Counted from the first letter of the stretch, positions 17,321 through 41,354 are shown. The stretch is DNA of 64,000 nt from a bacterium (GCA_021785655.1 JAJYET010000007.1:8267-72266); one strand, 5' to 3'. Numbers and translations: made by a program. Notes: a model not told the origin generated them from the letters alone.

Positions 17321-20005
<2,685 letters not shown>

Positions 20006-21546: not shown

Positions 21547-22677
21547 GTGCGGCCCCCATCCCCTGCCGGCCGGGTCGGGCTCTGGGCGGTGACGCTTGGC
21601 CTGGCCAGCCTGATCTTCGAACTCGGCTTCAGAGCGTACGCCCTGTCCCCATCGGACTTTCAGACGTTCCTCGCCGCCTCCCATCGGCTCATGGCCGGCC
21701 TCCCGCTATACGGAGGGGCGTTTGTGAGCCCACCGGAGCTGGCCGCTATCCTCGTGCCGCTCACCGTGGTGCCGCTGCCGGTCGCCTACGCCATCTTCGT
21801 GATGGCCAGCATCGGGATCCTGGCCTGGGGGACCGGCTCGTATGCCAGGGAGCTTGGGCTGAATCCCTGGGGGACCGCGTTGGCAGTGGTGCTGAGCCCC
21901 CAGGGCTGGTGGGGACTCATGCTGGGCCAGCCCGACGCCTTGCTCGTGGGCCTACTCCTGCTCGCGGTGGTCGCCGTCCGCCATCAGCGCTGGGCGGTGG
22001 CCGGGGTGATTGGGCCTTGGCTCCTTCTCAAGCCGGACCTCACCTGGCCCGTTGTCCCGTTGCTCATCGCAGCAGCCTGGAAGGACGCCGGAGTCCGGCG
22101 CCAGTTGGGGACGGGGTTGGCGGTTGGGGCAAGCACCTTCCTGCTCATGGCCGGTTGGCTGCTGCCGAGCTGGGCGATCGGACTCGTCCACTTCGGCGGC
22201 CGCTCCCAGTTCCAGGGGCTGCTCAGCGGCCTTCCTGATCTCCTTGGAGGAGAGTTGCGCGCCGCCCCCGCCCATCAGATCCTGGCCTCGCCGCTGACCT
22301 GGGCGATCGTCGGAGCGGGGATCGTGTCGATGGCGGCGGCGTGGCTTCTCGCCCAGCGGCGCGCCACCAGTGTGGCACAGCTCGCAGAGTGGACGCTTCT
22401 GGTTCCGCTCGCGATCTGGATCGCCACCTCCCCATACCTCCATGCCGAGGATGCCCTCTTCGCCGTCCCGTTGGCGCTGCGCCTGGCGGACTCGGGCCAC
22501 AGCTGGTTTCGCCTGCCGGTGCTGGTCATCCTGCTCCCGTGGGTTGTCTTCCCGACCTGGGGGGCACTCGCTGCCATCTGCGCGCTGGGCCTGGCCACGG
22601 GTGGAGTCGCCCTCATGGTCCGAGAGACGGGGCCGGGCCGCGAGCGAGCGCGGGTGGATTCGGCAGCCGCCACCTAG
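21547..22677 (+). CDS. Polytopic membrane protein, GT87/DUF2029-like
   Basis: 376 aa with loop motif SPSDFQTFLAASHRLMAGLPLYG and a multi-pass hydrophobic sequence. Confidence 0.55.
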   Translation: MRPPSPAGRVGLWAVTLGLASLIFELGFRAYALSPSDFQTFLAASHRLMAGLPLYGGAFVSPPELAAILVPLTVVPLPVAYAIFVMASIGILAWGTGSYARELGLNPWGTALAVVLSPQGWWGLMLGQPDALLVGLLLLAVVAVRHQRWAVAGVIGPWLLLKPDLTWPVVPLLIAAAWKDAGVRRQLGTGLAVGASTFLLMAGWLLPSWAIGLVHFGGRSQFQGLLSGLPDLLGGELRAAPAHQILASPLTWAIVGAGIVSMAAAWLLAQRRATSVAQLAEWTLLVPLAIWIATSPYLHAEDALFAVPLALRLADSGHSWFRLPVLVILLPWVVFPTWGALAAICALGLATGGVALMVRETGPGRERARVDSAAAT

Positions 22678-22722: not shown

Positions 22723-24171
22723 TCACCCGGGAACCGGGGCATGGGTGGCCGGCGAGGCGTATGCCGGCCCGGTCCCCGCCCCACCGACCTCCATCCAGCA
22801 GGTGCGGCAGGCCTCCACCACGAGGACCAGCGCGGCCACCGGCGTGAGGGACACCGCAAGCAGGTGGATTGGGTCCAGGACGGGGAAACAAGCCAATGTG
22901 AGCATCGCCAGCCCGGCGCCAAACCCGGTGAATCGCTGGTCCTCTCTGAAGCGCCAAAGAGCGACGGCCAGAACCGCCAGCGCCGACAAGCCCACCGGCC
23001 ACGGCACCACTCTCGCGGGCCAGGCCAGAAATACCAGAAGCACCACGCCCATGGCCAGCCACAGACCGGACCCGTGGAGCCGACGCACGTCCCGGCCCAG
23101 GGTCAGCACCAGGAGCGGCAGGAGCAGGAGGTCATCGTTGTTGTGGGCGTAGGGAGTCGAAGCGAGCCAGATGCCAACCGGCAGCGAGACGGCCCAGGAG
23201 ATCCGTCCGACCTCGGTGACCCCATTCCAGGAGGCGGAGGTCACCAGCCAGGCACCGAAGATCGCCATTCCCAGGAGGGCCAGTGAGACGACCGCCAACG
23301 TGCCCGGGGTCAGCAGGTGCCCGGTGAGGCCCCACGCCGCCGGGGCGGCCTGCTGGAGCGAGGGCAGTCCGGAGAGATTGGGCTGGGTGGTGCCGATCCC
23401 CGCGGAGAAGCGCACCAGCGCATGCCCCCAGGAGGCGAGCAGTCCCGGGTTGGCGAGGAATGCCCCCAGGGAGATGGCCACGAACCCGGTGGCGAACCAG
23501 GTGATCCGGCGACGGTCGGGCCAGAGTGCGAGGGCGAGGAAGATCGGGGCCGGCCAGAGGAGATCCGGCTTGAGCCAGAGAAAGCCCAGCACCAGTCCGG
23601 CGGCGAGTGGCCGGTGATGCCAGGCCAACAGCATCGCCCCCCCGAGTGCTGCCAGCAGGAAGGCGTCGACCTGTCCGAAGAGGAAACCCTGGAAGCTGAT
23701 CCAGGAGACGAGAGCCACGCCGGCGGTCAGTCGATCGTGGGACCAACCCAGGTCGCGCAAGAGGAACACCGTGACCACGCCAGCCGCGGCGGCGCCCAAA
23801 ACGGTGAGCACCACAAAGGCCACCCAGAACGGAAGGAGCGTGAGCGGCTCCAGGACCACCCCGGTGATGGGAAGGTAGGCAAAGTAGTTGAGAGCCGGCT
23901 GCTGATAGGGGTACCGGTCGGCTCGCTGAAGGAAGTGGAGCAGAACTTGGGGCGAGTAGGGGTCTTGGCCCGCAGCCATCGCCTTGGCCGCGCCGTAGAA
24001 GACTCGGAAGTCTGAGGCGAGCCCGTAGGCATGAGGAGGGAAGACCCTGATGAGGGCCAGGAGCACCATCCCCACCGACACCCCGATGACCAGGGCTAGG
24101 ACCAGGATCCGCGGCCACCGGCTCCGGCTCTCCAACAGCTCGTCGAGACTCGGCGCTGCCCCCCCACTCAC
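22723..24171 (-). CDS. Polytopic membrane protein, GT87/DUF2029-like; last gene of the Tad-containing operon
   Basis: The loop motif ASDFRVFYGAAKAMAAGQDPYS is the best PimE-like match in the window. GTG 24171 lies 7 nt after the ABC permease stop. The track ORF extension to 24372 overlaps that permease. Confidence 0.6.
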   Translation of the reverse strand: MSGGAAPSLDELLESRSRWPRILVLALVIGVSVGMVLLALIRVFPPHAYGLASDFRVFYGAAKAMAAGQDPYSPQVLLHFLQRADRYPYQQPALNYFAYLPITGVVLEPLTLLPFWVAFVVLTVLGAAAAGVVTVFLLRDLGWSHDRLTAGVALVSWISFQGFLFGQVDAFLLAALGGAMLLAWHHRPLAAGLVLGFLWLKPDLLWPAPIFLALALWPDRRRITWFATGFVAISLGAFLANPGLLASWGHALVRFSAGIGTTQPNLSGLPSLQQAAPAAWGLTGHLLTPGTLAVVSLALLGMAIFGAWLVTSASWNGVTEVGRISWAVSLPVGIWLASTPYAHNNDDLLLLPLLVLTLGRDVRRLHGSGLWLAMGVVLLVFLAWPARVVPWPVGLSALAVLAVALWRFREDQRFTGFGAGLAMLTLACFPVLDPIHLLAVSLTPVAALVLVVEACRTCWMEVGGAGTGPAYASPATHAPVPG

Positions 24172-24178
24172 CGGGCGC

Positions 24179-26686
24179 TCACTCCACGGCGAGCGCTTCG
24201 GTCGGATCCGTCCGGGCCAGCTGCCGGGCGGGAAGCACCGCAGCCAGCGCCAGCGCCAGCACCACCGCCACCGCCACCGCCAGCACCGCGGCCAGGGAGA
24301 CGCTGAAGGGGAGCGGGAGGTAGGGCGTGGAGGCCGCGGCGACCTCGGGGTAGACAAGTCCCACCCCGGCACCCACCCCCAGGACCGCTCCCAGGAGCGC
24401 GGTGGCGGCGGCCTGTCCGATCACGGCCCGGCCGAGCGCCGCCCGCCCCAGCCCCAGGACCCTGAGCAGGGCCAGCTCTCTGGTGGCCTCCCGGGTGTCC
24501 AGGACCACGGTGTCGACGGCGGCCAGGACCGCGATCACCACCCCCACCAGGGCCACCGAGGAGAGCAGGGCGATGTCGCCCTGGATCCCCCGATCCACCC
24601 CCTGCTGGACTGCGGCCACCGTCTCCGGCTGCATTCCGTAGCGGAATGCAGCCAGTCGCACGGCGGCGGCCGCGCCGGGACCGCTGGCCCGCAGCTGGAT
24701 CAGATTGAAGCCATCCGCCCCAGAACCGAAATCCCTCACCGCCGCGGCCCTGGAGATGACGACGCTCTCGACCCCCCCAGGCCCCGGGAGGGTGTGGGCG
24801 ACCACTCCCACCACCCGGAACCGTCCCCTTCCCCCCGCGGCGACCAAGTCGAGCACGGAGCCCGGGCCGGCGTGAACCGCCTGGGCGAGCTGGAGCGGGA
24901 TGATCACCCCCGACCCCCGCTCTGCCAGACGCAGAGCCTGCTCGCGCTGGCCCTCCACGAACTGCAGGGCCCCGCTGGCCCCGTAGGCGGGCAGGCTGGT
25001 GGCCGCAATCGTCACCGCTAGGTGGCCGGCGCGGGCGGGTAAGAACCTGATCGGAGCCACCTCCGAGACGCTGGGATGGCCGCTCGCCCGCCGCACCGCC
25101 GCCAGCAGCTGGGCCTCCACCTGGGAGCTCTGGACCACGGGGCCGACCACGAGATAGTTGCCCACGAACAGGCGGCCCACCCACAGGTTTCCGGAGAGGA
25201 GGGCGGAGGAGGTGATCCCCGCCAGGCTGGCCGCGGTGGCCATGGAGACGAAGAGGCTCCCCAGCGCCAGCGAGGTCCGGCCCGGCCGGGTCCTCGCCCG
25301 GGTGGCGACCGCCGCCACCGGCGCCACCAGCAGGCCCCCCACCACGGAGGCCAGGATGCCCACCAAGCGTGGGCCCTGCCAGCCCAGGAGGCAGAGCACG
25401 GCCGCATAGGTGAGGGTCGCCCCCAGCGCCACCCCCCAGCTTCCTCCGGCCGAGAACGCCACCGCCGCGCCCAGTGCTGCGAAGAGACCGACTAGGGGCC
25501 AGGCGCGCGCCCAGGTGCGGCTGCTGCGCCGGGGGCGCGGCCGCACCGCCTCCAGCGGGCGGGTCGTCGCCGCCTCGACCGCGGGCGCGAGAGAGGCCGC
25601 CAGCGCCAGCGCCACGGTGAGCAGCACGCTTCCCAGGGTCCACCCCCACTGGAAGCGGATCCCCACCCCGGGCGAGGAGCTGGTGGCGCTGGAGATCGCC
25701 ACCAGAACGGCAGCCAGCACGTATCCAGCCGCGGCTCCCAGGACCCCGCCCAGCAGCCCCACCGTCAGGGCCTCACGGATGAAGCTGCGAAACACCAGGG
25801 TGCGGCTGGCGCCGGCCAGGCGCGCCAGGCCGATCTCCCGGCGGCGCTCCAAGACCACAGACGACAGGGTGGCGCCGACCAGGGCCACCGCCAGGAGCAG
25901 GCTGAGGGCGGTCACCGCGTCCAGGACCGGAGCCAGCTGGGAGACCGGGTCCTGGCCCGCCGGGCGGGCCGCGCTCACCGTGAAGTCCTGGTGAAGGGCG
26001 GAGGGCAGCTCTCGGTCGAGGGCTCCCACGGTGGCTCCGGGGCGGAGCCGGACGGCGATCTCCTGGACCCCGAGCCCGGAGGCGAAGAGGCGCAGCGCGG
26101 TGGCGGACGTCACGTAGACTGCGTCGCCCGTGAACGGCGCCCCGGGGCCGGAGTCTGGTACCACCCCCACCACCCGGAACTTCCCCACGCCCCTGGACTC
26201 GGTGAGGCCGATGGACCCTCCGAGCCCGACCGCGCCGGATGCCCCCTGGCCGGTGGAGGCGGAGAACCCCGGGCTCAGCGACTGGCTGACCGCGACCACT
26301 TTCCCGGACCCCGGCCGACCGCCCCGCAGCAGGGGTAGCGGCCGCAGGGCCACCCCCTGCGGATAGACCACCACCAGCACCACCTGCTGGAAGCCCCCGC
26401 CCGGCAGCCGGGCCAGGTCCGCCTTGCTGGTCAGCAGGCCGACATCAGAGACCGCAGGGAGCTTCTGCACCGCGGCCACCTCGGAAGGAGAGAAGCCCGG
26501 CCGGCTGAACGGAGATATGTCGTACTGGGCGCGCCCGGCCGCAAGCTGGGCCGCACGCTCCGCCTGGGCGTGCAGGGCCGCCGCGGCCAGCTGGGTGCCG
26601 AGCACCGACGCCCCACCCAGAGCGAGCGCCGCGACCGCCAGCAGGAGCCTTGCCAGCGCCGAGCGCCGCCAGAGAAGGGGGATCAC
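24179..26686 (-). CDS. ABC transporter permease with two FtsX/MacB-type domains
   Basis: 835 aa. The unit TM - large extracytoplasmic domain - three-helix FtsX bundle occurs twice. GTG start lies 12 nt after the ATPase stop, with GGGGGA upstream. Confidence 0.8.
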   Translation of the reverse strand: MIPLLWRRSALARLLLAVAALALGGASVLGTQLAAAALHAQAERAAQLAAGRAQYDISPFSRPGFSPSEVAAVQKLPAVSDVGLLTSKADLARLPGGGFQQVVLVVVYPQGVALRPLPLLRGGRPGSGKVVAVSQSLSPGFSASTGQGASGAVGLGGSIGLTESRGVGKFRVVGVVPDSGPGAPFTGDAVYVTSATALRLFASGLGVQEIAVRLRPGATVGALDRELPSALHQDFTVSAARPAGQDPVSQLAPVLDAVTALSLLLAVALVGATLSSVVLERRREIGLARLAGASRTLVFRSFIREALTVGLLGGVLGAAAGYVLAAVLVAISSATSSSPGVGIRFQWGWTLGSVLLTVALALAASLAPAVEAATTRPLEAVRPRPRRSSRTWARAWPLVGLFAALGAAVAFSAGGSWGVALGATLTYAAVLCLLGWQGPRLVGILASVVGGLLVAPVAAVATRARTRPGRTSLALGSLFVSMATAASLAGITSSALLSGNLWVGRLFVGNYLVVGPVVQSSQVEAQLLAAVRRASGHPSVSEVAPIRFLPARAGHLAVTIAATSLPAYGASGALQFVEGQREQALRLAERGSGVIIPLQLAQAVHAGPGSVLDLVAAGGRGRFRVVGVVAHTLPGPGGVESVVISRAAAVRDFGSGADGFNLIQLRASGPGAAAAVRLAAFRYGMQPETVAAVQQGVDRGIQGDIALLSSVALVGVVIAVLAAVDTVVLDTREATRELALLRVLGLGRAALGRAVIGQAAATALLGAVLGVGAGVGLVYPEVAAASTPYLPLPFSVSLAAVLAVAVAVVLALALAAVLPARQLARTDPTEALAVE

Positions 26687-26698
26687 GGCCAGGTCCCC

Positions 26699-27493
26699 CT
26701 AGAGGCCATGGGCCGAGAGGCGCTCCAGCAGGGGGGCGGTGTCGTGGACGCTGCGGCGGCCCAGCTCCACGGTCTCGCGGATCTCCCCGTCCACCATGAT
26801 CGCCACGCGCTCCGCGTAGGCGGCGGTGCGCACGTCGTGGGTAACCATGACGATGGTGCGCTGGTCCTGGCGCGAGAGCCGCAGCAGCAGCTCCAGGACC
26901 GCGCGCCCCCCGTGGTAGTCCAGGGTGCCGGTGGGCTCGTCGGCCAGCACCACCGCCGGGTCGGCGACCAGGGCACGGGCCACCGCCACCCGCTGCTGCT
27001 CCCCCCCGGCGATCTCCTCCGGGCGGTGGCCCTGCAGCCCCCTCAGCCCGAGGAGGTTCATCACCTCCTCGGCCCGGTTGCGGGCGTCCCGGTCCCGTCC
27101 CAGCCCGCGCAGCGGCCAGACGCGCTCCCGCTCTAGGCGGTAGGGAAGCATCACGTTCTCGGCGGCGGTGAGGCTGGGCAACAGGTTGAAGAACTGGAAG
27201 ACGAAGCCGATCTGATTGCGCCGGAAGGCGGCCAGTTCCCGGTCGCTGAGCGCGTAGAGGTCCTGGCCCTGGATCCGCACCCGCCCCGAGGTGGGCTGGC
27301 TGAGCCCCCCCAGCATGTGCAGCAGCGTGGACTTGCCACAGCCGCTCGGCCCCATGACGGCGAAGAACTCTCCGCGGTGGACCTGGAGCGAGACCCCCCG
27401 CACCACCTCCCGAGGCGTCCTGCTGATGGCGTATGACTTGTGAAGGCCCTCGGCGTCCAGGACGGACGGCTGGGCCGCCTCCACCTCACTCAT
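26699..27493 (-). CDS. ABC transporter ATP-binding protein (MacB/LolD-like)
   Basis: Walker A GPSGCGKST, Q-loop FVFQFFNLL, atypical signature IAGGEQQRV, Walker B VVLADEPTGTLD, H-loop VTHD. Confidence 0.9.
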   Translation of the reverse strand: MSEVEAAQPSVLDAEGLHKSYAISRTPREVVRGVSLQVHRGEFFAVMGPSGCGKSTLLHMLGGLSQPTSGRVRIQGQDLYALSDRELAAFRRNQIGFVFQFFNLLPSLTAAENVMLPYRLERERVWPLRGLGRDRDARNRAEEVMNLLGLRGLQGHRPEEIAGGEQQRVAVARALVADPAVVLADEPTGTLDYHGGRAVLELLLRLSRQDQRTIVMVTHDVRTAAYAERVAIMVDGEIRETVELGRRSVHDTAPLLERLSAHGL

Positions 27494-28325
27494 CCAGATA
27501 GCCGCTGATCACCTGCTCGATGGTATTGGAGAGGAAGCCCCCCTGAGACCTCGGATAGCGCGCCTCCACGCCCCGCCGGGGTGGCCTCGGCTTGGGCGTG
27601 GGAGTGGGGGTCGGGGTGGCCGCGGGCGTGGGTGTGGGTGTGGGTGTGGGCGTGGCGTGGCTCCCGCCCGCCCCTCCGCCAGAGCTGGGCGGTGGCGGAG
27701 GCGGGGGCGGCGGTGCGGAGGCGGCGATCAGGGCGAACTCCTCGGCGAACATGTACACGTCGCTCCAGGGACCACCTCCGCTGCCGGGGTAGTTCCACTG
27801 CGCGGTGGTGTACCACGACCCCACCCCCAGGATGTTGTAGTCGCCGAGGATGTTGGCCCGGTGCGCGGGGGACGCCATGAAGGCGCTGTTGATGGCCACC
27901 GCCGGGCTGGCGTTCCCGGAGTTCCAGCCCACGTTCTCCCCCGCCGACCGCCAGGCGATCCCGTCGGCGGACATGATCGGCCACACATAGCCGCCATCGG
28001 CGCTGCAGCCGGGGATCTGGTGGGAGAAGTAGTCGCGGTTGAGCATGTCCGCGGCCCTCCCGTAGATCGGGGAGACGCTGCAACCGTAGTAGGGACGCGC
28101 CTCTCCGATCCCATCCAGGGTGGCGTTGTTGGCGAGCGCGCCCAGCCCGTTGCTGGTCCGGTCCTGGTTGACCAGGGAGAACAGCTCGCCGTCCAGGCCG
28201 GTGGGAGACCCGCTCTGGGCCAGGGCCGGGCGGAGACCCGGGCCCAGAAGCAGGAGGGCGGTGGCAGCGCCCAGGGCCGCCAGGAGCAGCCGGCCCCGGG
28301 GCAGGGGACGGGCGTGCCTAGCCAA
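27486..28325 (-). CDS. Secreted CAP/SCP (PR-1-like) domain protein with a Pro/Thr-rich C-terminal linker
   Basis: Signal-peptide-like N-terminus (LLLAALGAATALLLLGPGLRPALAQS). CAP motifs LVNQDRTSNGLGAL, DYFSHQ, AGENVGWN, SPAHRANILG..GVG. Then PPPPPPPP and a PTPTPTPTP run. Confidence 0.7.
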   Translation of the reverse strand: MARHARPLPRGRLLLAALGAATALLLLGPGLRPALAQSGSPTGLDGELFSLVNQDRTSNGLGALANNATLDGIGEARPYYGCSVSPIYGRAADMLNRDYFSHQIPGCSADGGYVWPIMSADGIAWRSAGENVGWNSGNASPAVAINSAFMASPAHRANILGDYNILGVGSWYTTAQWNYPGSGGGPWSDVYMFAEEFALIAASAPPPPPPPPPSSGGGAGGSHATPTPTPTPTPAATPTPTPTPKPRPPRRGVEARYPRSQGGFLSNTIEQVISGYLDE

Positions 28326-29505
28326 GCCGCCGCTGCAGGGGACCGGCGGGTGGGGTGGGCAGCCTGACCGCCGCCACCTGGTCGCCGCGGCGGTCGGGGA
28401 AGAGCCGGGAGATCTCGGGAGGCAGCGGCAGCCCCATGTCGAAGAGGCGATCGAGGATCTGGGGCCGGACGCCGGTCAGCTCGAGGGTGGTCTTGAGGTT
28501 GCCCTGGTTGTCCGCCCCCTCGGACTTCATGAGGAAGATGTCCTGCATGCTGATGGTCTCCCCCTCCATCCCCACCACCTCGCTGACGGCGGTGATCCGG
28601 CGGCTCCCGTCCCGGAGCCGATTGAGCTGGACCACGATGTTGATGGCGGAGGCGATCTGCTGGCGGATGGCCTTGCTGGGAAGCTCGATCCCTCCCATGA
28701 GGACCTGGGTCTCGAGCCGGGAGAGGCTGTCCCTGGGGGAGTTGGCGTGGACTGTGGTCATGGAGCCGTCGTGGCCGGTGTTCATCGCCTGGAGCATGTC
28801 CAGCGCCTCGCCACCGCGCACCTCCCCCACCACGATCCGGTCCGGGCGCATGCGCAGGGCGTTGATCACCAGGTCGCGGATGGCGATCCGGCCCTCGCCC
28901 CGGACGTCTGGGGGGCGGGACTCCAGCCGGCAGACATGCTCCTGGTGGAGCTGGAGCTCGGCGGCGTCCTCCACCGTTACGATGCGCTCGTCCGGGGGGA
29001 TGAAGCCGGAGCAGATGTTGAGCAGGGTGGTCTTCCCCGCCCCGGTGCCCCCGGAGATGAGGATGTTGGCCCGGGCCAGGACGCTGGCTTGGAGGAACGA
29101 GGCCGCGGCCTCGGTGATGGTACCGAAGTGGATCAGGTCGGTGATCCGCAGCCGCTCCTTGGCGAACTTGCGAATGGTGAGCATGGGCCCGTCGATGGCC
29201 ACCGGCGGGACCACGGCGTTGACCCGCGAGCCGTCCAGCAGGCGGGCGTCGCAGAGGGGCTGGCGGGTGTCGATCCGCCGCCCCACCGCGGAGACGATGA
29301 GGTCGATGACCTTGAGGAGATGCTCCTGATCCTTGAAGCGGACGTCGGTGAGCAGGATCCGGCCGTGCGCCTCCACGTACACCATGTCGGGGCCCACCAC
29401 CATGATCTCGGTCAAGTTGTCGTCCTCGACCAGGACCCGGAGGGGGCCGAGCGCCTGGAGGTATCCCTCCTGATCCGACGCGGCTTCGGCTTGTGACATC
29501 ACCAT
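28318..29505 (-). CDS. Second CpaF/TadA-family secretion ATPase (short form)
   Basis: 395 aa with Walker A GGTGAGKTT, RPDRIVVGEVRGGEA and NTGHDGSMTTVH. It aligns by eye along its length with the upstream CpaF but lacks that protein's N-terminal extension of about 120 aa. Confidence 0.9.
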   Translation of the reverse strand: MVMSQAEAASDQEGYLQALGPLRVLVEDDNLTEIMVVGPDMVYVEAHGRILLTDVRFKDQEHLLKVIDLIVSAVGRRIDTRQPLCDARLLDGSRVNAVVPPVAIDGPMLTIRKFAKERLRITDLIHFGTITEAAASFLQASVLARANILISGGTGAGKTTLLNICSGFIPPDERIVTVEDAAELQLHQEHVCRLESRPPDVRGEGRIAIRDLVINALRMRPDRIVVGEVRGGEALDMLQAMNTGHDGSMTTVHANSPRDSLSRLETQVLMGGIELPSKAIRQQIASAINIVVQLNRLRDGSRRITAVSEVVGMEGETISMQDIFLMKSEGADNQGNLKTTLELTGVRPQILDRLFDMGLPLPPEISRLFPDRRGDQVAAVRLPTPPAGPLQRRLG

Positions 29506-29509
29506 GGGG

Positions 29510-29950
29510 TTACTCCAAAGTCAGCTGGGGGTGGGGGGAGAGTCCGGGCACCGGGCGCAGAAGCAGCCGGGCTGGCAGGGAGAAGCCCATCCGCTCCAGC
29601 GTGCCGGGGGCCAGCTCCAAGGTGGAGCGGGCGCCCCGGACCGGCGAGAGGGTCACCGAGAAGGGACGCAGCGACCAGGGTCGCATCCGGGAGACCGAGC
29701 GCACCACCTCGCCCTCGGCGTCGAGGAAGAGAAGGTCGATGGCGGTGCGCATGAAGAACATGTGGATGCTCCGGCAGGGCACCAGCCAGATCCCCTCCCC
29801 CGCCGGCACCTCCCTCCTGCCCATCAGCCCGAGGAAGCGGCTCAAGAGCCCCCTGGCCACCCTCACCCGGGCGGCCAGCTGGCGGCCGTCGGGCAGGAGC
29901 ACCTCCACGACGTCCGCCCGCTCCGGCAGCGACCTTCGCTCAGCCGACAT
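29510..29950 (-). CDS. DUF192 (COG1430-like) domain protein
   Basis: 146 aa. The segment RGLLSRFLGLMGRREVPAGEGIWLVPCRSIHMFFMRTAIDLLFLD is the pattern I associate with DUF192. No signal peptide. Its start overlaps the tadC stop by 11 nt. Confidence 0.6.
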   Translation of the reverse strand: MSAERRSLPERADVVEVLLPDGRQLAARVRVARGLLSRFLGLMGRREVPAGEGIWLVPCRSIHMFFMRTAIDLLFLDAEGEVVRSVSRMRPWSLRPFSVTLSPVRGARSTLELAPGTLERMGFSLPARLLLRPVPGLSPHPQLTLE

Positions 29951-30860
29951 GGAAGAGCAGGTGGACCGCCGGCGGCCCCAGGAGGATCACGAACAGGGTC
30001 GGGAAGATGCAGCCAACCATGGGGAAGAGCATCTTTAGGCTGGCCTGCTGGGCCTTGGCCTCGGCGCGCTGCCGACGGCGCCGGCGGAGCTCGTCCGACT
30101 GGATGCGCAGCACCCGGGCGATGCCCACACCGAGCTGGTCAGACTGGACCAGCGCCTGGATGAAGGCGTTCAGCTCCGGAACCCCCGAGCGCTTGCCCAT
30201 CTCCTCGAGCGCCTCCTGCCGCGGCCGGCCCAGGCGGATCTCGTTGAGCACGAAGGCGAACTCCCGCGAGAGGGCGTTGTCGAACTTCTCCACCACCCGG
30301 TTGAGGGCGGCGTCGAAACCCAGTCCGGCCTCCACGCTGATGGTGAGCAGGTCCAGGCTGTTGGGAAGCGCCAGGGTGATCTCCTTCTGGCGGGCCGAGA
30401 CCGTGCGCTTCAGGAGGTACTGGGGAGTGATGTAGCCGAAGACCGCCCCGAAGAGCAGCCCCAGCCACCAGGTGAGGTTCAGCAGGATCGCCAGCCCGAT
30501 GCAGGCCAGGCCGAGGACCACCGCCAGCACCACCTGAATGGCCATCAGGCTGGCGGCGTTGATCCCCATGGGCCGCCCCGCGAGATCGATCATCACCTGC
30601 ACCTTCTGGGCCCGGTCGCGGGGCTGAAGGGCGGCCAGCCTCTTCCCTATGCGGTCGAAGAAGGGCCGCAGCACCCGCTCGCTGAAGGGGCGGGAGAGCT
30701 CGATCTGGTCCAGGGTCTGGTTGGCCTCGGGGGCCTCGTACACGGCCAGCCGGGCGTCCAGGAGGTCCACCGGGGCGGCGGTGCGCGAGGTCACCCCCAC
30801 CACCACCAAGAAGACGGCGACCGCCGCCAGGACCCCGACCAGGATGGCGTCAACCGACAT
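29940..30860 (-). CDS. tadC: Tad pilus inner-membrane platform protein TadC (T2SS-F family)
   Basis: 306 aa with an N-terminal TM, a cytoplasmic T2SSF-like helical domain (LPNSLDLLTISVEAGLGFDAAL) and C-terminal TMs. It is the second of two F-family genes after cpaF. Confidence 0.8.
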   Translation of the reverse strand: MSVDAILVGVLAAVAVFLVVVGVTSRTAAPVDLLDARLAVYEAPEANQTLDQIELSRPFSERVLRPFFDRIGKRLAALQPRDRAQKVQVMIDLAGRPMGINAASLMAIQVVLAVVLGLACIGLAILLNLTWWLGLLFGAVFGYITPQYLLKRTVSARQKEITLALPNSLDLLTISVEAGLGFDAALNRVVEKFDNALSREFAFVLNEIRLGRPRQEALEEMGKRSGVPELNAFIQALVQSDQLGVGIARVLRIQSDELRRRRRQRAEAKAQQASLKMLFPMVGCIFPTLFVILLGPPAVHLLFHVG

Positions 30861-30863
30861 GGC

Positions 30864-31874
30864 TCAGACCTCGATGTTGGAGATGCGCTGCATGATGTAG
30901 TAGGCGACGGCGATAGAGCAGGCGCAGACGATGAGGATGTACGGCCCCGGGCCCTTGAAGGTGAGCAGGGGGGCGATGTACTGGGGGTTGATGGCCTGCA
31001 GGACCAGCGCCAGGCCGATCGGCAGCCCGGTGATGATGTAGCTGGAGGCCCTCGCCTGAGCGGTCAGGGTCCGGATCTCGCCCTTGATGCGGATCCGTTC
31101 CCGAATGGTGAAGGCGATGTTGTCCAGGATCTCGGCGAGGTTCCCGCCGACGACCCGCTGGATCTGGACCGCGGTGACCACGAGGTCCAGGTCCTCGGAG
31201 CGGATCCGGGTGACCATGTGGGAGAGCGCCTCGTCGGTGTTGACCCCCAGCTGGATCTCCCGGTTGGCCCGGGAGAACTCCTCGGCCACGGGTGGGTTGG
31301 CCGAACGCGCCACGCTGGCCATCGCCTGGGGGAAGCTGTACCCGGCCTTCAGGGCGTTGCTGAGCAGCACCAGGACGTCACCCAGCTGATCGTTGAAGCG
31401 GCGGGAGCGCCGGCGCTCCCGAAAGCGAAGGACCAGGGGTGGGATGAAGACCCCCACCACCGCCAGGATGGCGGCGAAGATGAGGTTGCGGTAGACGGCC
31501 AGCCCGATCAGGGCCAGGAGCCCCACCGAGCCCACCCGGATCAGGTACCACTCCGCGGGGCGGAGCTTGAGGTCGGCACGCCCCAGCGCCTCGGAGATGG
31601 CCGCCGAGCGCCCGCGCTGGCTGGCCAGCACCTGGGCCCCGGTGCGCCCGCCGCCCCTGAGCCGGCCGAGCAGGCGGGTGATAGGTCCTTGGGCGCCGGA
31701 CTCCCCGTCCTCCGGAACGCTGATCACCAGCCCCGCCCCCGCCTCCGCGAATCGGCGGACGCGCTCGTCCAGGTCGGCCTCGCGGCTCTTGGTGCGGGCC
31801 AGCCCCACGGCGGCGATGGCGGCGAAGACCGCCAGCGCCCCCAGGGCGTCAAAGAAGATGGGCAGGGCGCTCAT
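30864..31874 (-). CDS. tadB: Tad pilus inner-membrane platform protein TadB (T2SS-F family)
   Basis: 336 aa with T2SSF-like core LGDVLVLLSNALKAGYSFPQAM. ATGA overlap with the cpaF stop. Confidence 0.8.
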   Translation of the reverse strand: MSALPIFFDALGALAVFAAIAAVGLARTKSREADLDERVRRFAEAGAGLVISVPEDGESGAQGPITRLLGRLRGGGRTGAQVLASQRGRSAAISEALGRADLKLRPAEWYLIRVGSVGLLALIGLAVYRNLIFAAILAVVGVFIPPLVLRFRERRRSRRFNDQLGDVLVLLSNALKAGYSFPQAMASVARSANPPVAEEFSRANREIQLGVNTDEALSHMVTRIRSEDLDLVVTAVQIQRVVGGNLAEILDNIAFTIRERIRIKGEIRTLTAQARASSYIITGLPIGLALVLQAINPQYIAPLLTFKGPGPYILIVCACSIAVAYYIMQRISNIEV

Positions 31875-33409
31875 GCGGCGCTGTCCGCGGCTGAGGGCTG
31901 GGGGTCGTGGAAGATCGCGGGGTCCACCGGCTCGCCCATCGCCTTGAGGTCGGGGAGGGACTTGGGCTCGGCGACGGCGTGGAAGCCGCCGATCACCCGG
32001 CCGTCGTCGTCCAGCCCCTCCTGCTGGTACACGAAGATGTCCTGGAGCAGCACCTTCTCCCCGTCGAAACCCTGGACCTCCGAGATGGCCACCACGCGCC
32101 GGCTGCCGTCCCGGAGCCTGGCCTGCTGGACGATGATGTTGATCGCCGCGGCGATCTGCTCGCGGATGGCCCGCGAGGGAAGGTCGGCGCCGGCCATGAG
32201 CACCATGGTCTCGAGCCGGGAGAGGGTGTCCTGGGGGCTGTTGGAGTGGACGGTGGTGAGCGAGCCGTCGTGACCGGTGTTCATGGCCTGGAGCATGTCC
32301 AGCGCCTCACCGCCCCGGCACTCCCCCACCACGATCCGGTCGGGGCGCATCCGGAGGGAGTTGATCACCAGCTCCCGGATCCCGATCCGCCCCCGGCCCT
32401 CGATGTTGGCCGGCCGGGACTCAAGGGTCACCACGTGGTCCTGGTGGAGCTGTAGCTCGGCGGAGTCCTCGATGGTCACGATCCGCTCGTCGTCGGGGAT
32501 CCAGCCCGAGAGCACGTTCAAGGTCGTCGTCTTTCCTGACCCGGTGCCCCCAGCCACCACCAGGTTCTGGCGGCCGCGGACGCAGGCCCTGAGGAACGTG
32601 GCCATCTCCTGGGTCAGGGTCCCGAACTCGACCAGGTTGTCGATGGTGAAGGGGTCCTTGCTGAAGCGCCGGATGGTGAGGGTGGGGCCCTTGAGGGCCA
32701 ACGGGGGGATGATCACGTTCACCCGGGAGCCGTCCCGGAGGCGGGCGTCCACCATGGGGGAGCTCTCGTCCACTCTCCGTCCGACCGAGCTGACGATCCT
32801 GTCGATGATCTGCATGAGGTGGTCGTTGGAGTCGAAGTGGGCGGGGTAGCGGTGGATCCGCCCCTGGCGCTCCACATAGATCTGGTCGGGGCCGTTGACC
32901 ATGATCTCGGTGATGTCGGGGTTCTTGAGCAGCAGCTCCAGCGGCCCCAGGCCCAGGATGTCGTTGACGATCTGCTCCACCAGCCGCTGCCGGTCGTTGC
33001 GGGTGATGGAGATACTCAGGTCCTCCAGCACCGCCCCGGTGAGCTCCCCGATCTTGGCGACCAGGGTGTCGCGGGGAGCCTTGGAGACGTCGGAGTACTC
33101 CTCCAGGAGAGCCTGCGTCACCTGGGACTTGATGACCGAGTACTGGGGGTGGGTGGTGTGGCGCTGCTCTTGCTGGCGCGCACTCTCCGCCCGCTCCCGC
33201 CAGCCGGGCCCTGCCGCCGGGGCGGCCGCCTTGGCGGCCGGGCTCGGGGCCGCGGCCTGACGCTGCGCCTCCTGCTTCTCCGCGGCCTCGGTGACCGCGC
33301 CGGCCAACCTGGAGCCCTGGGGCGCCGGCGGAGAGGCGGGGCCGGCGGCCGGGGCTCCGGTCTCGGCCTCCGTCTCGCCCTGGTTGCGGACCCGCTCAAG
33401 CAGTGACAT
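31871..33409 (-). CDS. cpaF: Tad pilus secretion ATPase CpaF/TadA (long form)
   Basis: 512 aa with an Ala/Pro-rich N-terminal extension, Walker A GGTGSGKTT, RPDRIVVGECRGGEA and NTGHDGSLTTVH. Confidence 0.9.
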   Translation of the reverse strand: MSLLERVRNQGETEAETGAPAAGPASPPAPQGSRLAGAVTEAAEKQEAQRQAAAPSPAAKAAAPAAGPGWRERAESARQQEQRHTTHPQYSVIKSQVTQALLEEYSDVSKAPRDTLVAKIGELTGAVLEDLSISITRNDRQRLVEQIVNDILGLGPLELLLKNPDITEIMVNGPDQIYVERQGRIHRYPAHFDSNDHLMQIIDRIVSSVGRRVDESSPMVDARLRDGSRVNVIIPPLALKGPTLTIRRFSKDPFTIDNLVEFGTLTQEMATFLRACVRGRQNLVVAGGTGSGKTTTLNVLSGWIPDDERIVTIEDSAELQLHQDHVVTLESRPANIEGRGRIGIRELVINSLRMRPDRIVVGECRGGEALDMLQAMNTGHDGSLTTVHSNSPQDTLSRLETMVLMAGADLPSRAIREQIAAAINIIVQQARLRDGSRRVVAISEVQGFDGEKVLLQDIFVYQQEGLDDDGRVIGGFHAVAEPKSLPDLKAMGEPVDPAIFHDPQPSAADSAA

Positions 33410-33432
33410 CTGGGACGTACTCCTCGGCTACT

Positions 33433-34659
33433 CTAGCGCCGCAGGCTGAACCGGTGGCCGGCCTGGGGCTTGGACTCCAGCTTGATCTCCGACGCTGGCT
33501 CGGCGGCCGGATCCAGGCTCCGGGCCAGGGCCTTGAAGAGCGAGGTCAGCTCGGCGTCCGGGTTGCCCACCACGACAGGGACCGCCCGGTGGATGGAGCC
33601 CCCCACCAGCCGCGGCTCCGAGGGCAGCTGCACCCGGACCGGGAATTTTAGGTTGCGCTCGATGCTGGGGGAGTCGTAGACGGCGTGGGCATCGTGCCCA
33701 TTGATCACCACCACGATCCGGTCGCGCTCCACCCGGAGCGACTCCAGGGTCTTCAGCATGAGGCGGGTGTCCTTAATGGCGGGGATGGTGAGCTGGCCGA
33801 CGACGACGATCCGGTCGGCGGCGTCAACCACTTCCAGGGCAGCTTCCGACAGCTGGCTCGCCGTGTCGACCACGACCCAGTCAAACTCTCGTCGCAATAT
33901 GTCAACGAGGGAGCGCACGTGCTCGGCCCGCACCAGGTCCCCGTACTCGGGGCTGAAGGGGCCAAGAAGCACCCGCAACCCCAGGGGGCCGTCCGCCAGC
34001 ACGTCGTCCACGAACTCCCAATCGGGCTGGGACTCGCCGTCCACCAGCTCGGTGATGGTCTTGGCGTGGTCCAGGTTGAGCATGACGCCGACATCCCCGA
34101 ACTGCAGGTCCAGGTCGACCAGGCACACCCTGGTTGAGGTCTCGGCCCGGAGCGCCAGCGCCAGGTTGACGGCCACGACGCTCTTGCCGCTGCCCCCCTT
34201 GCCGCTCAGCACCGTCACCAGCCTGCCCCGGGAGGGTGGCTGCTCCGCCTCGGCCCCGGCTGCCGCCTTGGGAAGGTAGGCGCCCTTCTTGGACTCCAGC
34301 TCGTAGACCCGGCGGATGCTGGCCACCAGCTCGTCCCCGGTGAAGGGCTTGATGAGGAACTCCCGGGCCCCGGACTGCATCGCCCGGCGGAGGTAGTCGC
34401 GCTCCCCCTGGACCGACATGATCACCACCGGGCACTGGGGCAGCTCCACCGCCAGCTGCTCGGTGGCGCTGATCCCGTCCATGCCCGGCATGTTGACGTC
34501 CATCAGCACCACGTGCGGCTGGAGCCGGCGGATCACCTCGAGCCCTTCCTTGCCGTCCCCGGCGTCGCCGACCACCTCGATGTCCTCCTCGAAGGAGAGG
34601 AGCTTCTTGAGGTTCTCCCGGGTGGAGGGGATGTCGTCCACCACCACCACCCGGATCAC
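33433..34659 (-). CDS. cpaE: Response-regulator receiver domain fused to a CpaE/TadZ-type MinD/ParA ATPase
   Basis: The REC domain has acidic pocket VVVDD, phospho-acceptor context VVLMDVNMPGMDG, and LIKPF lysine. It is followed by the deviant Walker A SGKGGSGKS of the MinD/ParA fold. Confidence 0.85.
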   Translation of the reverse strand: MIRVVVVDDIPSTRENLKKLLSFEEDIEVVGDAGDGKEGLEVIRRLQPHVVLMDVNMPGMDGISATEQLAVELPQCPVVIMSVQGERDYLRRAMQSGAREFLIKPFTGDELVASIRRVYELESKKGAYLPKAAAGAEAEQPPSRGRLVTVLSGKGGSGKSVVAVNLALALRAETSTRVCLVDLDLQFGDVGVMLNLDHAKTITELVDGESQPDWEFVDDVLADGPLGLRVLLGPFSPEYGDLVRAEHVRSLVDILRREFDWVVVDTASQLSEAALEVVDAADRIVVVGQLTIPAIKDTRLMLKTLESLRVERDRIVVVINGHDAHAVYDSPSIERNLKFPVRVQLPSEPRLVGGSIHRAVPVVVGNPDAELTSLFKALARSLDPAAEPASEIKLESKPQAGHRFSLRR

Positions 34660-34714
34660 GCCGGCACCCCGAGCTTGAGGCGACCCACCGGACTTCCTTC
34701 CCTTGACCCTCCGC

Positions 34715-35869
34715 TCAACCGATGTTGATGCCGAAGAGACTCTGCAGCATCTGCGGGCTGCCCTGGCTCACCGAGCTGCTGGACGCCGAGCCCGCCGCGG
34801 TGGCACCGCAGTAGAGCACGGATCGGTCCGACTGCACCAGGTTCTGGGACTGGATCAGCGCGAACTGATCCTGGGCCAGGGTTGCGGCATCGGCCAGCAC
34901 CAGCTGCTTGGCGGTCGTCTCGTTGGGGCTGCCCGAGGGCAGCGACTGCAGGGTGGTGTTGTCCTTGTTGTACTGCTTCTGGGCCTCGGAGTAGGTCTTG
35001 CTGGCCGCGGTCACGGCCTGCTGGGCCTGCTGCAGGTCCTCCTCGATGATGGGGTTCACCGAGGTTCCCGGGGTGCAGGCCTGGGAGTAGTTGTCGGCCG
35101 GGGAGATGGTGGTGGGGATGTAGCCGTGGCCGTAGTCGGCGGCCGAGCGCAGCGCCACGGTGTAGATGGCCCCGCCCTTCTCCAGCTCCTCGATCCCCAG
35201 CGCCTGGCTGCGGGTCACCTGGAGCACCACCAGCCCACCGCCGGCGGAGGAAGCCGCCTGACCGGTGGTCGAGGGGCTGCCGATGCCCAGAACCAAGAGG
35301 TCCTGGTAGGTGAAGCCGACATTGCCGTTGGAGCCGGTGGAGATGAAGTCGATCCGGTCACCCGCCTGGAGATAACCCGCCACCGCCTGCTGCGAGGTGA
35401 GCGGGATGGCGATGGCCACGTCCCCGGGCGGAAGGTTGAGGCTGCCGAACGACGGCGTCTGGGTGACCTTGTTGGGCGACACCAGGGTGCCGGTGATCAC
35501 GGTGTTGGCGGCGATCGGAACCACGGCGTAGTAGTCCAGGGTGGTGGAGGTGGTCGCCGGCTGGCTCACCTGGACCCCGGAGCTCTCGGAGCAGGCGGCG
35601 CCCACCAGCCTCTGACAGGAGGTGTAGGCGTTGGCCGGGAGCAGCCCCTTGATCCGGGTCAGCTCCAGCATCCCCGGGGTGATGAGGGTCCCGCTGGGGA
35701 TGGACACCCTCGCCACCACGACCAGGGTCCCGTTGGCCGGGATCGCCGGCTTGGGGGGGGTGGCGCTGGCGCGGGTGAAGTAGTAAGCGAGCCCGAAGGC
35801 GGCGATAGCGCAGATCAGCCCGACGGCGATCCAGACCTGATTGACCCGTCCTTTCAAATCGGTCGACAC
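34715..35869 (-). CDS. cpaB: Flp pilus assembly protein CpaB/RcpC-like, with a Gln-rich C-terminal extension of about 120 aa
   Basis: N-terminal TM anchor, then a SAF-like segment VVVARVSIPSGTLITPGMLE and an RcpC-like beta domain. GTG start with GGAGG about 10 nt upstream. Confidence 0.7.
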   Translation of the reverse strand: MSTDLKGRVNQVWIAVGLICAIAAFGLAYYFTRASATPPKPAIPANGTLVVVARVSIPSGTLITPGMLELTRIKGLLPANAYTSCQRLVGAACSESSGVQVSQPATTSTTLDYYAVVPIAANTVITGTLVSPNKVTQTPSFGSLNLPPGDVAIAIPLTSQQAVAGYLQAGDRIDFISTGSNGNVGFTYQDLLVLGIGSPSTTGQAASSAGGGLVVLQVTRSQALGIEELEKGGAIYTVALRSAADYGHGYIPTTISPADNYSQACTPGTSVNPIIEEDLQQAQQAVTAASKTYSEAQKQYNKDNTTLQSLPSGSPNETTAKQLVLADAATLAQDQFALIQSQNLVQSDRSVLYCGATAAGSASSSSVSQGSPQMLQSLFGINIG

Positions 35870-35919
35870 CGTGGATAACCTCCGAGATAAGACGCCGGCG
35901 GGGCCGGCAGGGGGAAGCG

Positions 35920-35948
35920 GGCGCGCGGCGGCCCGGCCGCCGCGCGCC
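35920..35948 (-). terminator. 13-bp perfect GC hairpin (3-nt loop) between flp and cpaB; candidate attenuator or intrinsic terminator without a U tract
   Basis: GGCGCGCGGCGGC-CCG-GCCGCCGCGCGCC, read directly. It begins 16 nt downstream of the flp stop and about 50 nt upstream of the cpaB start. Confidence 0.5.
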
Positions 35949-35963
35949 TCTGGGACCTAAGGG

Positions 35964-36164
35964 TTACTGAAGCCCGTTCTGGATGTTGTTGAAGACGTCG
36001 CTGACCCGGTGACCGACGATGGCCAGGACAACGATCACGACGATGGCGATGAGTACCAGAATCAGGGCGTACTCGACCATACCCTGCCCCTCTTCCTCCG
36101 CGTCACGGCCAGTCAGCGCCTCGGTGAGGCGGCTGCGCAGCCGCAGGTACCAAGAACTCAGCAT
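35964..36164 (-). CDS. flp: Flp-family type IVb pilin precursor
   Basis: This is the last 66 codons of track ORF 35964..37277. ATG 36164 has GGAGG upstream. The sequence MLSSWYLRLRSRLTEALTGRDAEEEG/QGMVEYALILVLIAIVVIVVLAIVG carries the Flp G/xxxxEY processing motif and a hydrophobic core. The mature peptide is about 40 aa. Confidence 0.85.
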   Translation of the reverse strand: MLSSWYLRLRSRLTEALTGRDAEEEGQGMVEYALILVLIAIVVIVVLAIVGHRVSDVFNNIQNGLQ

Positions 36165-37483: not shown

Positions 37484-37794
37484 CTCGGGCCCGACGCCGA
37501 CCCGTCGGCCAGGGTCTCCCGGCGCCGAGTGCTTAACCTCGGGTTAAGGTTCCCATAGCACCCTCTTATCCCCGGAGCGGGCAGACTCGGTTCATGCGGG
37601 CTGAGGTCCACCAGCCGCCGGGACGTCGCGGACCCTGCAGTTTTCAGGGCGAGCGGTGACGAACCCATCACGCGATCGTCGCCTCTCCGTGGCCCCAGAA
37701 CGGCCGCGGAGGGTGCACCCTGGTGCCGTCCGGGGATCCACCGCACCAGGTGGCGGCCCGGGCCCGGGTTTCCGCCTGCAGTAGGAGGGCGACA

Positions 37795-38013: not shown

Positions 38014-38031
38014 CCCCACTTTGAGGGGCGG

Positions 38032-41283: not shown

Positions 41284-41354
41284 CCGTCCCGGACCTCCTC
41301 TGTGGCCACGGCTTTCGAACCCCTGGCGAGCGGACCCCAAGTCGCGGCTGGTGA

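Follow-up and report, generated by a model that had tools for sequence, protein, structure and literature searches.

A Tad/Flp pilus operon of Candidatus Dormibacterota that may divide extension and retraction between two CpaF motors

Tad pili are the standing example of one ATPase serving both extension and retraction. The Tad (Cpa) pilus of Caulobacter crescentus depends on a single bifunctional CpaF (Ellison 2019; Hohl 2024; Yen 2025, PMC12019362; Whitfield 2026, preprint). Here we describe a 64,000-nt stretch of bacterial DNA (GCA_021785655.1, JAJYET010000007.1:8267-72266; hereafter the window) in which twelve minus-strand genes at positions 22723-36164, with flp first and a GT87 glycosyltransferase gene last, join a Tad/Flp core to a second cpaF and to genes for a DUF192 protein, a secreted CAP protein and a MacB-type ABC pair. 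We judge it slightly better than an even bet (probability about 0.55) that these genes make up a composite operon centered on a monoderm-type Tad/Flp pilus, with separate motors predicted for extension (CpaF-1) and retraction (CpaF-2) and with passenger modules. It resembles the Caulobacter Cpa locus in its Flp-type pilin, CpaB, CpaE/TadZ, CpaF and 2 platform proteins with a single T2SSF domain each, and differs in having 2 motors, of which CpaF-1 lacks R387 and the C-terminal motif, and CpaF-2 is without the disordered region and the three-helix bundle and carries another residue in place of E331. Further, no secretin, TadD, TadE/F/G, or TadV was seen in the locus, and its CpaE receiver is canonical, again unlike Caulobacter. 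Monoderm Tad loci of Actinomycetota, including Mycobacterium tuberculosis Rv3654c-Rv3660c and the tad loci of Bifidobacterium breve and Micrococcus luteus, have no secretin, a compact flp-tadZ-tadA-tadB-tadC core, and often a prepilin peptidase encoded elsewhere, and the window locus is alike in this. Unlike it, they carry TadE/TadF and one TadA, and we know of none described with DUF192, a second bundle-less TadA, or a CAP-MacB module.

Among 292 CpaF orthologues, a three-helix bundle, an N-terminal domain (NTD), and an ATPase domain form the minimum architecture, and helix 5, loop 8 (G204, R205, R206, D208), and the pore loop (E331, G334) are the predicted platform contacts of the extension face (PMC12019362). 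CpaF has been proposed to retract the pilus by flipping, its C-terminal face then meeting the platform; no pilus retraction was visible in Caulobacter R387A, and extension-only CpaFs carry degenerate C-termini (bioRxiv 10.64898/2026.02.24.707734).

Both CpaF copies of the window matched the CpaF structures 9e24 and 8rkd (1e-118 to 1e-128), with Walker A, Walker B, Asp box, and His box intact. CpaF-1 has the minimum architecture, covering the disordered region, three-helix bundle, NTD, and ATPase domain of the Caulobacter protein, and its alignment ends just before the C-terminal motif. CpaF-2 has neither the disordered region nor the bundle, and its alignment extends through the C-terminal motif. 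Only 31 residues precede TEIMVVG in CpaF-2, and an in-frame stop sits 5 codons before the cpaF-2 ATG, so that no longer product is possible. CpaF-2 falls outside the 3 published CpaF architecture classes (I-III, Yen 2025), and a bundle-less CpaF contradicts the stated "minimum architecture" of the family.

The platform-contact residues of the 2 copies have diverged reciprocally. R387 was lost in 14 of 14 Dormibacterota CpaF-1 sequences (replaced by Q, A, N, S, or H, with Q in the window copy) and was kept in 21 of 21 CpaF-2 sequences and in all 93 CpaFs of other phyla. The extension-face residue E331 was kept in every CpaF-1 (14/14) and in 88 of 93 CpaFs of other phyla, and was replaced by R, H, or N (R in the window copy) in all 21 CpaF-2 sequences. 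Likewise, the loop 8 sequence DESSP was kept in CpaF-1, changed in every CpaF-2, and mostly kept in other phyla. The C-terminal motif TGxRP..DR..G[LI] was identified in CpaF-2 with a single exception (20/21; L044 differs) and in most CpaFs of other phyla, and is degenerate in CpaF-1, where the position equivalent to 489 is E in 14 of 14 sequences; the window copies read TGV-RPQILDRLFDMGL in CpaF-2 and AVAE--PKSLPDLKAMGE in CpaF-1. The signature given for a dual-orientation, retraction-competent CpaF (Whitfield 2026, preprint), P386/R387 at the start of helix 11 together with an intact C-terminal motif, is present in CpaF-2 and missing from CpaF-1. The background CpaF set, which also served for the DUF192 linkage count below, came from a genome scan seeded with CpaF-2, in which the universal peptide DMLQAMNT drew mostly generic CpaFs, and is not a census of CpaF-2.

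Neighbor joining on Kimura distances, a simple method, recovered the CpaF-1 clade and the CpaF-2 clade as monophyletic in 50 of 50 bootstraps each, with mirrored internal branching. Judged from the sequences, CpaF-2 is an ancient Dormibacterota paralogue of the Tad motor, and it is the better conserved copy, with 88% identity to its counterpart in locus L009 vs 73% for CpaF-1. Orphan CpaFs of another kind were observed in Anaerolineae (L184, L211, L215, L220, and L237), where they follow a receiver-domain gene and have no tadB/tadC in the vicinity. Their loop 8 is altered, as is E331 in some of them, the three-helix bundle is kept, and they may be another specialized kind of CpaF.

Reciprocal and fixed loss of complementary surfaces points to subfunctionalization, and on the simplest reading CpaF-1 only extends and CpaF-2 only retracts, on one TadB/TadC platform. 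CpaF would have been duplicated and each copy would have lost one platform-contact face. Because CpaF-1 keeps the bundle and the extension face and CpaF-2 keeps the retraction face, we propose that CpaF-1 would dock on TadB/TadC by its N-terminal face, polymerizing Flp, and that CpaF-2 would dock by its C-terminal face, depolymerizing Flp, with a PilB/PilT-like exchange of motors replacing the inversion of a single CpaF. The proposed logic is that of type IVa pili, where the extension ATPase is long and has an additional N-terminal domain, the retraction ATPase is shorter and reduced to the core, and the two act on the same platform by opposite faces. Unlike PilB and PilT, the CpaF pair arose by duplication within the CpaF clade, and CpaF-2 is not a PilT by sequence, scoring 50.5 bits on the PilT/PilU-type profile TIGR01420 vs a cut-off of 319.1. 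Two paralogues with one face each, throughout a phylum, are the pattern that the inversion model predicts for a split motor, and, if this reading is true, CpaF-1 and CpaF-2 offer a natural separation-of-function test of that model. The fuller claim, namely that this is a two-motor Tad system born of CpaF duplication with CpaF-2 as the first dedicated Tad retraction ATPase, DUF192 as an unrecognized Tad component, and CAP-ABC-MacB as an undescribed type VII module, is tentative, and we place it a little short of even odds. A preliminary description of this DNA had listed 2 CpaFs and overlooked CpaF-2 as a specialized half-motor, which emerged from the motif and architecture comparison.

Several observations weigh against a division of extension and retraction between the 2 motors. 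The retraction-face model comes from one preprint on one organism, in which R387A cells still showed signs of residual retraction (bioRxiv 10.64898/2026.02.24.707734), and the extension-face contacts were modeled with AlphaFold3 and not read from a solved structure of the complex (PMC12019362). CpaF-2 keeps G204, R205, R206, and D208 of loop 8 and may still bind the platform N-terminally, and the CpaF-2 of L044 has a CpaF-1-like C-terminal tail. Deletion of the bundle from Caulobacter CpaF left no detectable protein (PMC12019362), and a bundle-less CpaF is not known to work. Further, the sister relation of the CpaF-1 and CpaF-2 clades is weak (12 of 50 bootstraps), and cpaF-2 lies directly before the CAP gene in 3 of 4 Dormibacterota layouts, including L182 and L190, leaving room for a tie to the CAP module. 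The search of the window recovered neither TadE/TadF nor TadV, so that a complete pilus can only be presumed.

Table 1. Features of the twelve-gene locus, in the direction of transcription, with positions in the window
Feature	Position	Strand	Product length (aa)	Evidence
flp, Flp prepilin	35964..36164	-	66	PF04964, 35.5 bits vs 32.2 cut-off
Two G+C hairpins 3' of flp	35893..35948	-		Perfect 13-bp stem; then 7-bp stem + UCUUAUCU (U-rich tract)
cpaB/rcpC, SAF + RcpC domains, ~120-aa C-terminal extension	34715..35869	-	384	PF16976, PF08666
cpaE/tadZ, canonical receiver domain fused to ParA/MinD-type ATPase	33433..34659	-	408	Response_reg 1e-29 + AAA_31/ParA/CbiA
cpaF-1, full-length Tad motor	31871..33409	-	512	Caulobacter CpaF alignment, residues 11-472 of 501
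tadB/cpaG platform, one T2SSF, ~165-aa N-terminal region	30864..31874	-	336	PF00482, 2.2e-19
tadC/cpaH platform, one T2SSF	29940..30860	-	306	PF00482, 7.4e-20
DUF192 protein	29510..29950	-	146	PF02643, 58.7 bits
cpaF-2, Tad motor paralogue, NTD + ATPase domain only	28318..29505	-	395	Caulobacter CpaF alignment, 145-489
Secreted CAP/SCP protein	27486..28325	-	279/281	Homologues with PF00188, family profile, AlphaFold model
ABC ATPase, LolD/MacB/FtsE (type VII) kind	26699..27493	-	264	ABC_tran, 2.1e-35
Duplicated MacB/FtsX-type permease	24179..26686	-	835	FtsX in two stretches
GT87-family (GT-C) membrane glycosyltransferase, last operon gene	22723..24171	-	482	PF09594, 53.6 bits vs 25 cut-off

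The window has approximately 70% G+C, and its closest relatives are metagenome-assembled genomes (MAGs) of Candidatus Dormibacterota, a soil phylum without cultured members. Public gene calls on contig DAHZGQ010000007.1 of MAG GCA_027402005.1, which is identical to the window, gave the same twelve products, and Pfam scans of the operon proteins identified Flp, RcpC with SAF, Response_reg with a ParA-like domain, T2SSE in 2 proteins, T2SSF in 2 proteins, DUF192, ABC_tran, FtsX in 2 stretches, and GT87. The preliminary description had reported a same-strand run of twelve genes with near-abutting or overlapping codons that passes without a break from the Tad genes into the distal genes, and the coordinates bear this out at each listed junction. 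Overlaps join cpaF-1 to tadB (4 nt, ATGA), tadC to DUF192 (11 nt), cpaF-2 to the CAP gene (8 nt, with TTG as the CAP start), and the CAP gene to the ABC gene (8 nt). Short gaps separate tadB from tadC (3 nt), DUF192 from cpaF-2 (4 nt), the ABC gene from the FtsX gene (12 nt), and the FtsX gene from GT87 (7 nt), and the upstream gaps are 94 nt between flp and cpaB and 55 and 23 nt at the next 2 junctions. The operon junction scan gave no terminator-like site in any junction 3' of the flp hairpins. From this spacing and the conserved order of the genes, the twelve are predicted to be co-transcribed.

By its core parts, the locus reads as a Tad/Flp system: a Flp prepilin, a TadA/CpaF ATPase, 2 single-T2SSF platform proteins, TadZ/CpaE, and CpaB/RcpC were all identified, the pseudopilins being a part that was not found locally. 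The core machine would consist of Flp, CpaB, a phosphorylatable receiver-CpaE/TadZ, the motor CpaF-1, and the TadB/TadC platform. The Flp processing motif G/MVEYALILVLI (context EEGQG/MVEYALIL) follows the G/XXXXEY pattern, CpaB scored 69.1 bits on TIGR03177 vs a cut-off of 71, and the phospho-acceptor pocket of the CpaE receiver (DD, D, K) is visible in the sequence. The flp/cpaB spacer, taken as 97 nt, has a folding energy of -51.2 kcal/mol (z = -2.85), and its hairpins are probably a partial terminator or attenuator setting the pilin-to-machinery ratio, in that a hairpin after flp would let pilin transcripts exceed machinery transcripts. A HisKA_3 histidine kinase gene lies directly upstream of flp in L024 (848-1894), and a similar kinase gene was found at 49300-50442 of the window, 13 kb away. 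The upstream kinase together with the canonical CpaE receiver suggests two-component control of pilus assembly.

We compared gene order over 261 fetched loci (L numbers) by tblastn with the window proteins. The full order from flp to GT87 was complete in 3 loci (L006, L009, and L030), and 6 Dormibacterota loci cut by contig ends held matching partial stretches (L005, L007, L008, L010, L024, and L029), with protein identities of 55-98% over these 9 loci and of 55-88% between L009 and the window. Deeper lineages (L033, L038, L044, L049, L050, L061, L062, and L072) kept flp-cpaB-cpaE-cpaF1-tadB-tadC and DUF192-ComF-cpaF2-CAP-ABC-FtsX-SecA, with no GT87 and with 0-2.6 kb of unrelated genes that can part tadC from DUF192. 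L183 holds DUF192-ComF-cpaF2-HPF-SecA with no CAP module. In L182 (10001-18351) and L190 (10001-19854), cpaF-2 is followed by a metallo-beta-lactamase-fold gene and cpaF-1 on the opposite strand and then by CAP-ABC-FtsX, and no tadB or tadC was found within 10 kb. The neighborhood search proposed earlier thus showed that the block recurs beside Tad genes, in 3 complete and 6 partial Dormibacterota loci and, as the DUF192-CpaF2-CAP-ABC-FtsX core, in deeper lineages. The earlier statement that the distal half matches no described system also stands, in that we found no paper describing the arrangement and, in the literature, no account of a Tad system with two specialized motors, of DUF192 as a Tad component, or of a CAP-MacB module. 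Gene content, synteny, and modular distribution, like the reciprocal motif pattern, are direct observations, and they show that the distal half is 4 pieces of different origin (DUF192, CpaF-2, CAP-ABC-MacB, and GT87), not one new system.

A ComF-like gene, encoding a double zinc ribbon and a phosphoribosyltransferase, was observed between DUF192 and cpaF-2 in L033 (10429-11082), L038 (5221-5904), L062 (10467-11147), and L183 (8860-9540), and after DUF192 in a Chloroflexi MAG (L014, 11116-12120). ComF beside a retraction-type motor hints at pilus-dependent DNA uptake. The order comF-hpf-secA is an old housekeeping synteny, known from Bacillus and Mycobacterium gene order. We rejected ComF as a part of the system, given that synteny and the absence of comF from the window.

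The DUF192 protein belongs to the DUF192/COG1430 family by its PF02643 domain and by the fold of 3pjy/3m7a, which Foldseek matched (E = 3e-8, query template-modeling [TM] score 0.64) to a model with a predicted local distance difference test (pLDDT) score of 83; a sequence search of solved structures gave nothing useful. No signal peptide or membrane segment was identified in this DUF192 subfamily. Its gene adjoins Tad genes in at least 6 phyla: tadC is followed by DUF192 in Chloroflexia, the order tadC-DUF192-TPR-TadE was seen in a betaproteobacterium, DUF192 adjoins Tad genes in Verrucomicrobiales, and it is divergent from flp in Gaiellales and Bacillota. Examples of DUF192 next to tadC or divergent from flp are L013 (9965-10315), L015 (10037-10393), L027 and L028 (about 8001-8342), and L185-L259. 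Among loci seeded with DUF192 outside Dormibacterota, 17 of 47 hold cpaF, tadB, or tadC; in cpaF-seeded loci, 21 of 51 tadC genes have a DUF192 gene downstream on their strand, at most 2.5 kb away and in 15 cases adjacent, and these 21 cases cover Bacillota, Chloroflexota, Acidobacteriota, Gemmatimonadota, and Actinomycetota. In other phyla, DUF192 co-occurs with TadE/TadG. The literature mentioning DUF192 yielded no paper connecting it to Tad. By this linkage, DUF192 looks like a widespread, unrecognized cytoplasmic Tad accessory, which would act in the cytoplasm on the motor, TadZ, or the prepilin, and the cross-phylum association is the first functional context for DUF192. A second DUF192 paralogue (42-50% identical), not near Tad genes, was found in many Dormibacterota genomes (L031-L097, 30 loci).

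The gene at 27486..28325 had been called a CAP protein in the preliminary description, and this identity was confirmed by homologues, profile, and fold, even though the single sequence scored 15.2 bits on Pfam CAP, below the threshold of 21.1. Homologues at 53-64% identity carry PF00188, the family profile matches the SCP-domain protein 4ifa (9.7e-14), and the AlphaFold model (pLDDT above 90 in the CAP domain) superposes on Borrelia BB0689 (4d53) with a target TM score of 0.85 and a root-mean-square deviation of 2.1 Å, so that both the profile and the alpha-beta-alpha sandwich fold place it in the CAP/SCP/PR-1 superfamily. It consists of an ordinary Sec-type signal peptide, the CAP domain (approximately residues 40-200), a Pro/Thr-rich linker, and an amphipathic C-terminal helix (264-278; window 27486-27530, GGFLSNTIEQVISGYLDE) whose coding sequence overlaps the start of the ABC gene. 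This helix keeps its sequence throughout Dormibacterota (for example, ...GILETVVDQVLRLFLSV) and may serve in docking or sorting. The protein shares the fold and the invariant cavity residues H, E, H with Borrelia BB0689, S. aureus SAV1118, B. anthracis 4ifa, and B. subtilis YkwD; unlike them, it has a long Pro/Thr linker, the conserved C-terminal helix, and a fixed pairing with ABC/MacB genes.

The ABC ATPase had LolD, DevA, MacB, YbbA, and FtsE as its best NCBIfam matches, and both halves of the permease align to MacB (5lil at residues 166-381 and 5gko at 554-833), with relatives of the permease carrying MacB_PCD and FtsX twice. The pair belongs to the type VII ABC superfamily and is not LolCDE, MacB, or FtsEX proper, since every equivalog cut-off was missed; the window encodes true FtsEX separately, at about 7412-9150. 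Like FtsEX (with EnvC, PcsB, CwlO, or RipC) and MacAB/LolCDE, it combines a LolD/MacB/FtsE-like ATPase with an FtsX-fold permease that has extracytoplasmic domains, encoded beside a secreted partner; unlike them, it has an 835-aa permease that is a fused duplicate and, as partner, a CAP/SCP protein, not a coiled-coil hydrolase activator. In 80 loci seeded with CAP, mostly of Limnocylindria (L102-L181, CAP at about 8001 in each), the ABC ATPase and FtsX permease genes came after CAP in 53 of the 53 Chloroflexota loci with enough downstream sequence, and cpaF, tadB, or tadC was found within 8 kb in none of 79 loci. These genomes hold Tad-DUF192 loci elsewhere, as in OY969424.1, where the Tad locus and the CAP module are 1.4 Mb apart. 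On this distribution, CAP-ABC-MacB is an independent envelope module, most likely a type VII ABC mechanotransmitter that would act on, or release, its secreted CAP partner by analogy with FtsEX. No paper linking CAP/YkwD proteins to FtsX or MacB was found in the literature, and the CAP-MacB pairing offers a testable partner for bacterial CAP proteins and for one class of orphan duplicated permeases. A divergent receiver-domain gene often lies just upstream of the CAP module in Limnocylindria/Chloroflexota (L102-L181; L022 and L023).

The last gene of the operon encodes a polytopic membrane protein with PF09594 and belongs to the GT87 family. The window holds at least 5 GT87 paralogues in addition to PMT_2, GtrA, and GT2-like open reading frames (ORFs), the GT2-like ones recognized by eye only. 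In the sister Dormibacterota lineages, FtsX is followed directly by secA, and the operon GT87 is, from this comparison, a lineage-specific addition; like CAP-ABC-MacB, it would be co-transcribed by position and not driven by the pilus motor. Gaiellales provide a second, independent GT87 next to Tad genes, in a DUF192-GT87 pair (L027, 8001-10220; L028, 8001-9508) divergent from flp in a complete Tad locus encoding Flp, TadE, TadG, RcpC, CpaE, CpaF, a VWA-TadB fusion, and TadC. We rejected GT87 as a conserved Tad partner, the Gaiellales match being weak (E = 6.6e-7, barely above a paralogue) and GT87 being absent after FtsX in the sister lineages. The window is unusually rich in genes for envelope glycosylation, which lie at 382-1659, 15792-17228, 20078-21331, 21547-22677, and 22723-24171, as well as 44041-45669, 46840-47505, 47424-48944, 14139-14861, and 56881-57720, and several large polytopic membrane proteins with no Pfam match are encoded at 10584-11939, 11920-13635, 50334-52022, 52029-53750, and 55427-57139.

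We searched the window for the remaining Tad parts with Pfam scans, tblastn, and motif scans, and identified no TadE/TadG, A24 peptidase, or secretin, a result made less secure by the fact that not every small ORF was profiled; with that limit, the absence of TadE/TadF, TadV, and secretin noted in the preliminary description holds. The best tblastn match of 4 TadE/TadG proteins to the window (E = 0.012) fell in a noncoding stretch, and a weak TadE match at 37686-37859 was rejected for lack of a coding signal. Neither the window nor any of 14 related Dormibacterota loci gave a TadE motif, and TadE/TadF(/TadG) pseudopilins were not found in any of these; the same scan recovered true TadE in Chloroflexia and Gaiellales loci. 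TadV/A24 was not seen among the Pfam-scanned ORFs of the window; six-frame regular-expression scans for A24 motifs were empty at every locus, including phyla that must have one, and, having no positive control, were given no weight. In monoderms, TadV is often encoded apart from the tad locus, as in Bifidobacterium breve.

The reciprocal motif pattern could have a meaning other than retraction by CpaF-2, which might be a second extension motor, a regulator acting through mixed or competing hexamers, or the motor of a platform encoded elsewhere. Intact catalytic motifs and the retained G204, R205, R206, and D208 would suit such roles, the altered loop 8 of the orphan Anaerolineae CpaFs indicates that changes of this type need not mean retraction, and both cpaF genes are far from platform genes in L182 and L190. 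We nevertheless consider these roles unlikely, since the reciprocal losses are fixed in all members of each clade over deep divergence and fall exactly on the residues assigned to the two faces, a pattern that division of labor on one platform predicts and that is hard to explain otherwise; nor was a second tadB/tadC pair seen in related loci. A different role for CpaF-2 follows from the earlier suggestion that the pilus motor is coupled to export or anchoring of CAP and to envelope glycosylation: CpaF-2 would help to export, anchor, or display CAP through ABC/MacB, with GT87 glycosylating the product, in a pilus-coupled secretion system. In its favor are the 8-nt overlaps at cpaF-2/CAP and CAP/ABC and the placement of cpaF-2 immediately before CAP-ABC-FtsX, which the window lineage shares with 2 sister lineages; in L182 and L190, neither tadB nor tadC comes within 10 kb. 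The Pro/Thr-rich linker of CAP, as a possible glycosylation target, and its conserved C-terminal helix count in the same direction. However, the CAP trio is self-contained: it has its own ATPase, and all 53 Chloroflexota loci with enough downstream sequence carry it with no cpaF, none of 79 loci having Tad genes near it. In addition, L183 has cpaF-2 without the module, CAP carries an ordinary Sec signal peptide, and the surfaces kept in CpaF-2 are those of TadB/TadC-type platform contacts. With GT87 missing from the sister lineages as well, neither coupling was upheld, and we regard such a secretion system as distinctly unlikely.

That the twelve genes are mere neighbors, brought together by genome compaction and with internal promoters serving the distal ones, would fit the 0 to 2.6 kb of unrelated genes between tadC and DUF192 in sister lineages, the old comF-hpf-secA synteny, and a window crowded with glycosyltransferases. 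It is very unlikely in view of 6 junctions from cpaF-1 to GT87 that overlap or span no more than 12 nt, junctions after flp free of terminator-like sites, an order kept at 55-98% protein identity in 9 loci, and the clear ties of DUF192 and CpaF-2 to Tad. The preliminary description had also raised the possibility that the distal genes stand in for the minor pilins TadE/TadF or for the prepilin peptidase, which would account for a TadE motif being absent from the window and the 14 related loci when the scan finds TadE elsewhere. This we find scarcely credible: a pilin-like N-terminus and the peptidase A24 fold are lacking in all the distal proteins, DUF192 occurs together with TadE/TadG in other phyla, and monoderms often encode TadV apart from their tad loci. 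A composite operon with separate extension and retraction motors is the reading that we prefer.

Outside the operon, G+C falls to 0.64-0.65 at positions 10000-18000 vs about 0.70 elsewhere, a region of plus-strand membrane proteins, a GT2-like ORF, and a methyltransferase-like gene (the last 2 recognized by eye only) that may be horizontally acquired. In a stretch of approximately 550 nt at 37484-38031, between the gene upstream of flp and a phosphatase/fn3 gene, no reading frame looked convincingly coding, and Rfam gave no match. That phosphatase/fn3 gene (38032-41358) encodes a secreted protein of 1108 aa with purple-acid-phosphatase and fn3 domains, and by eye its C-terminus holds 3 repeats of approximately 130 aa (VTPYRxCDTR...LNVT.TDTT...).

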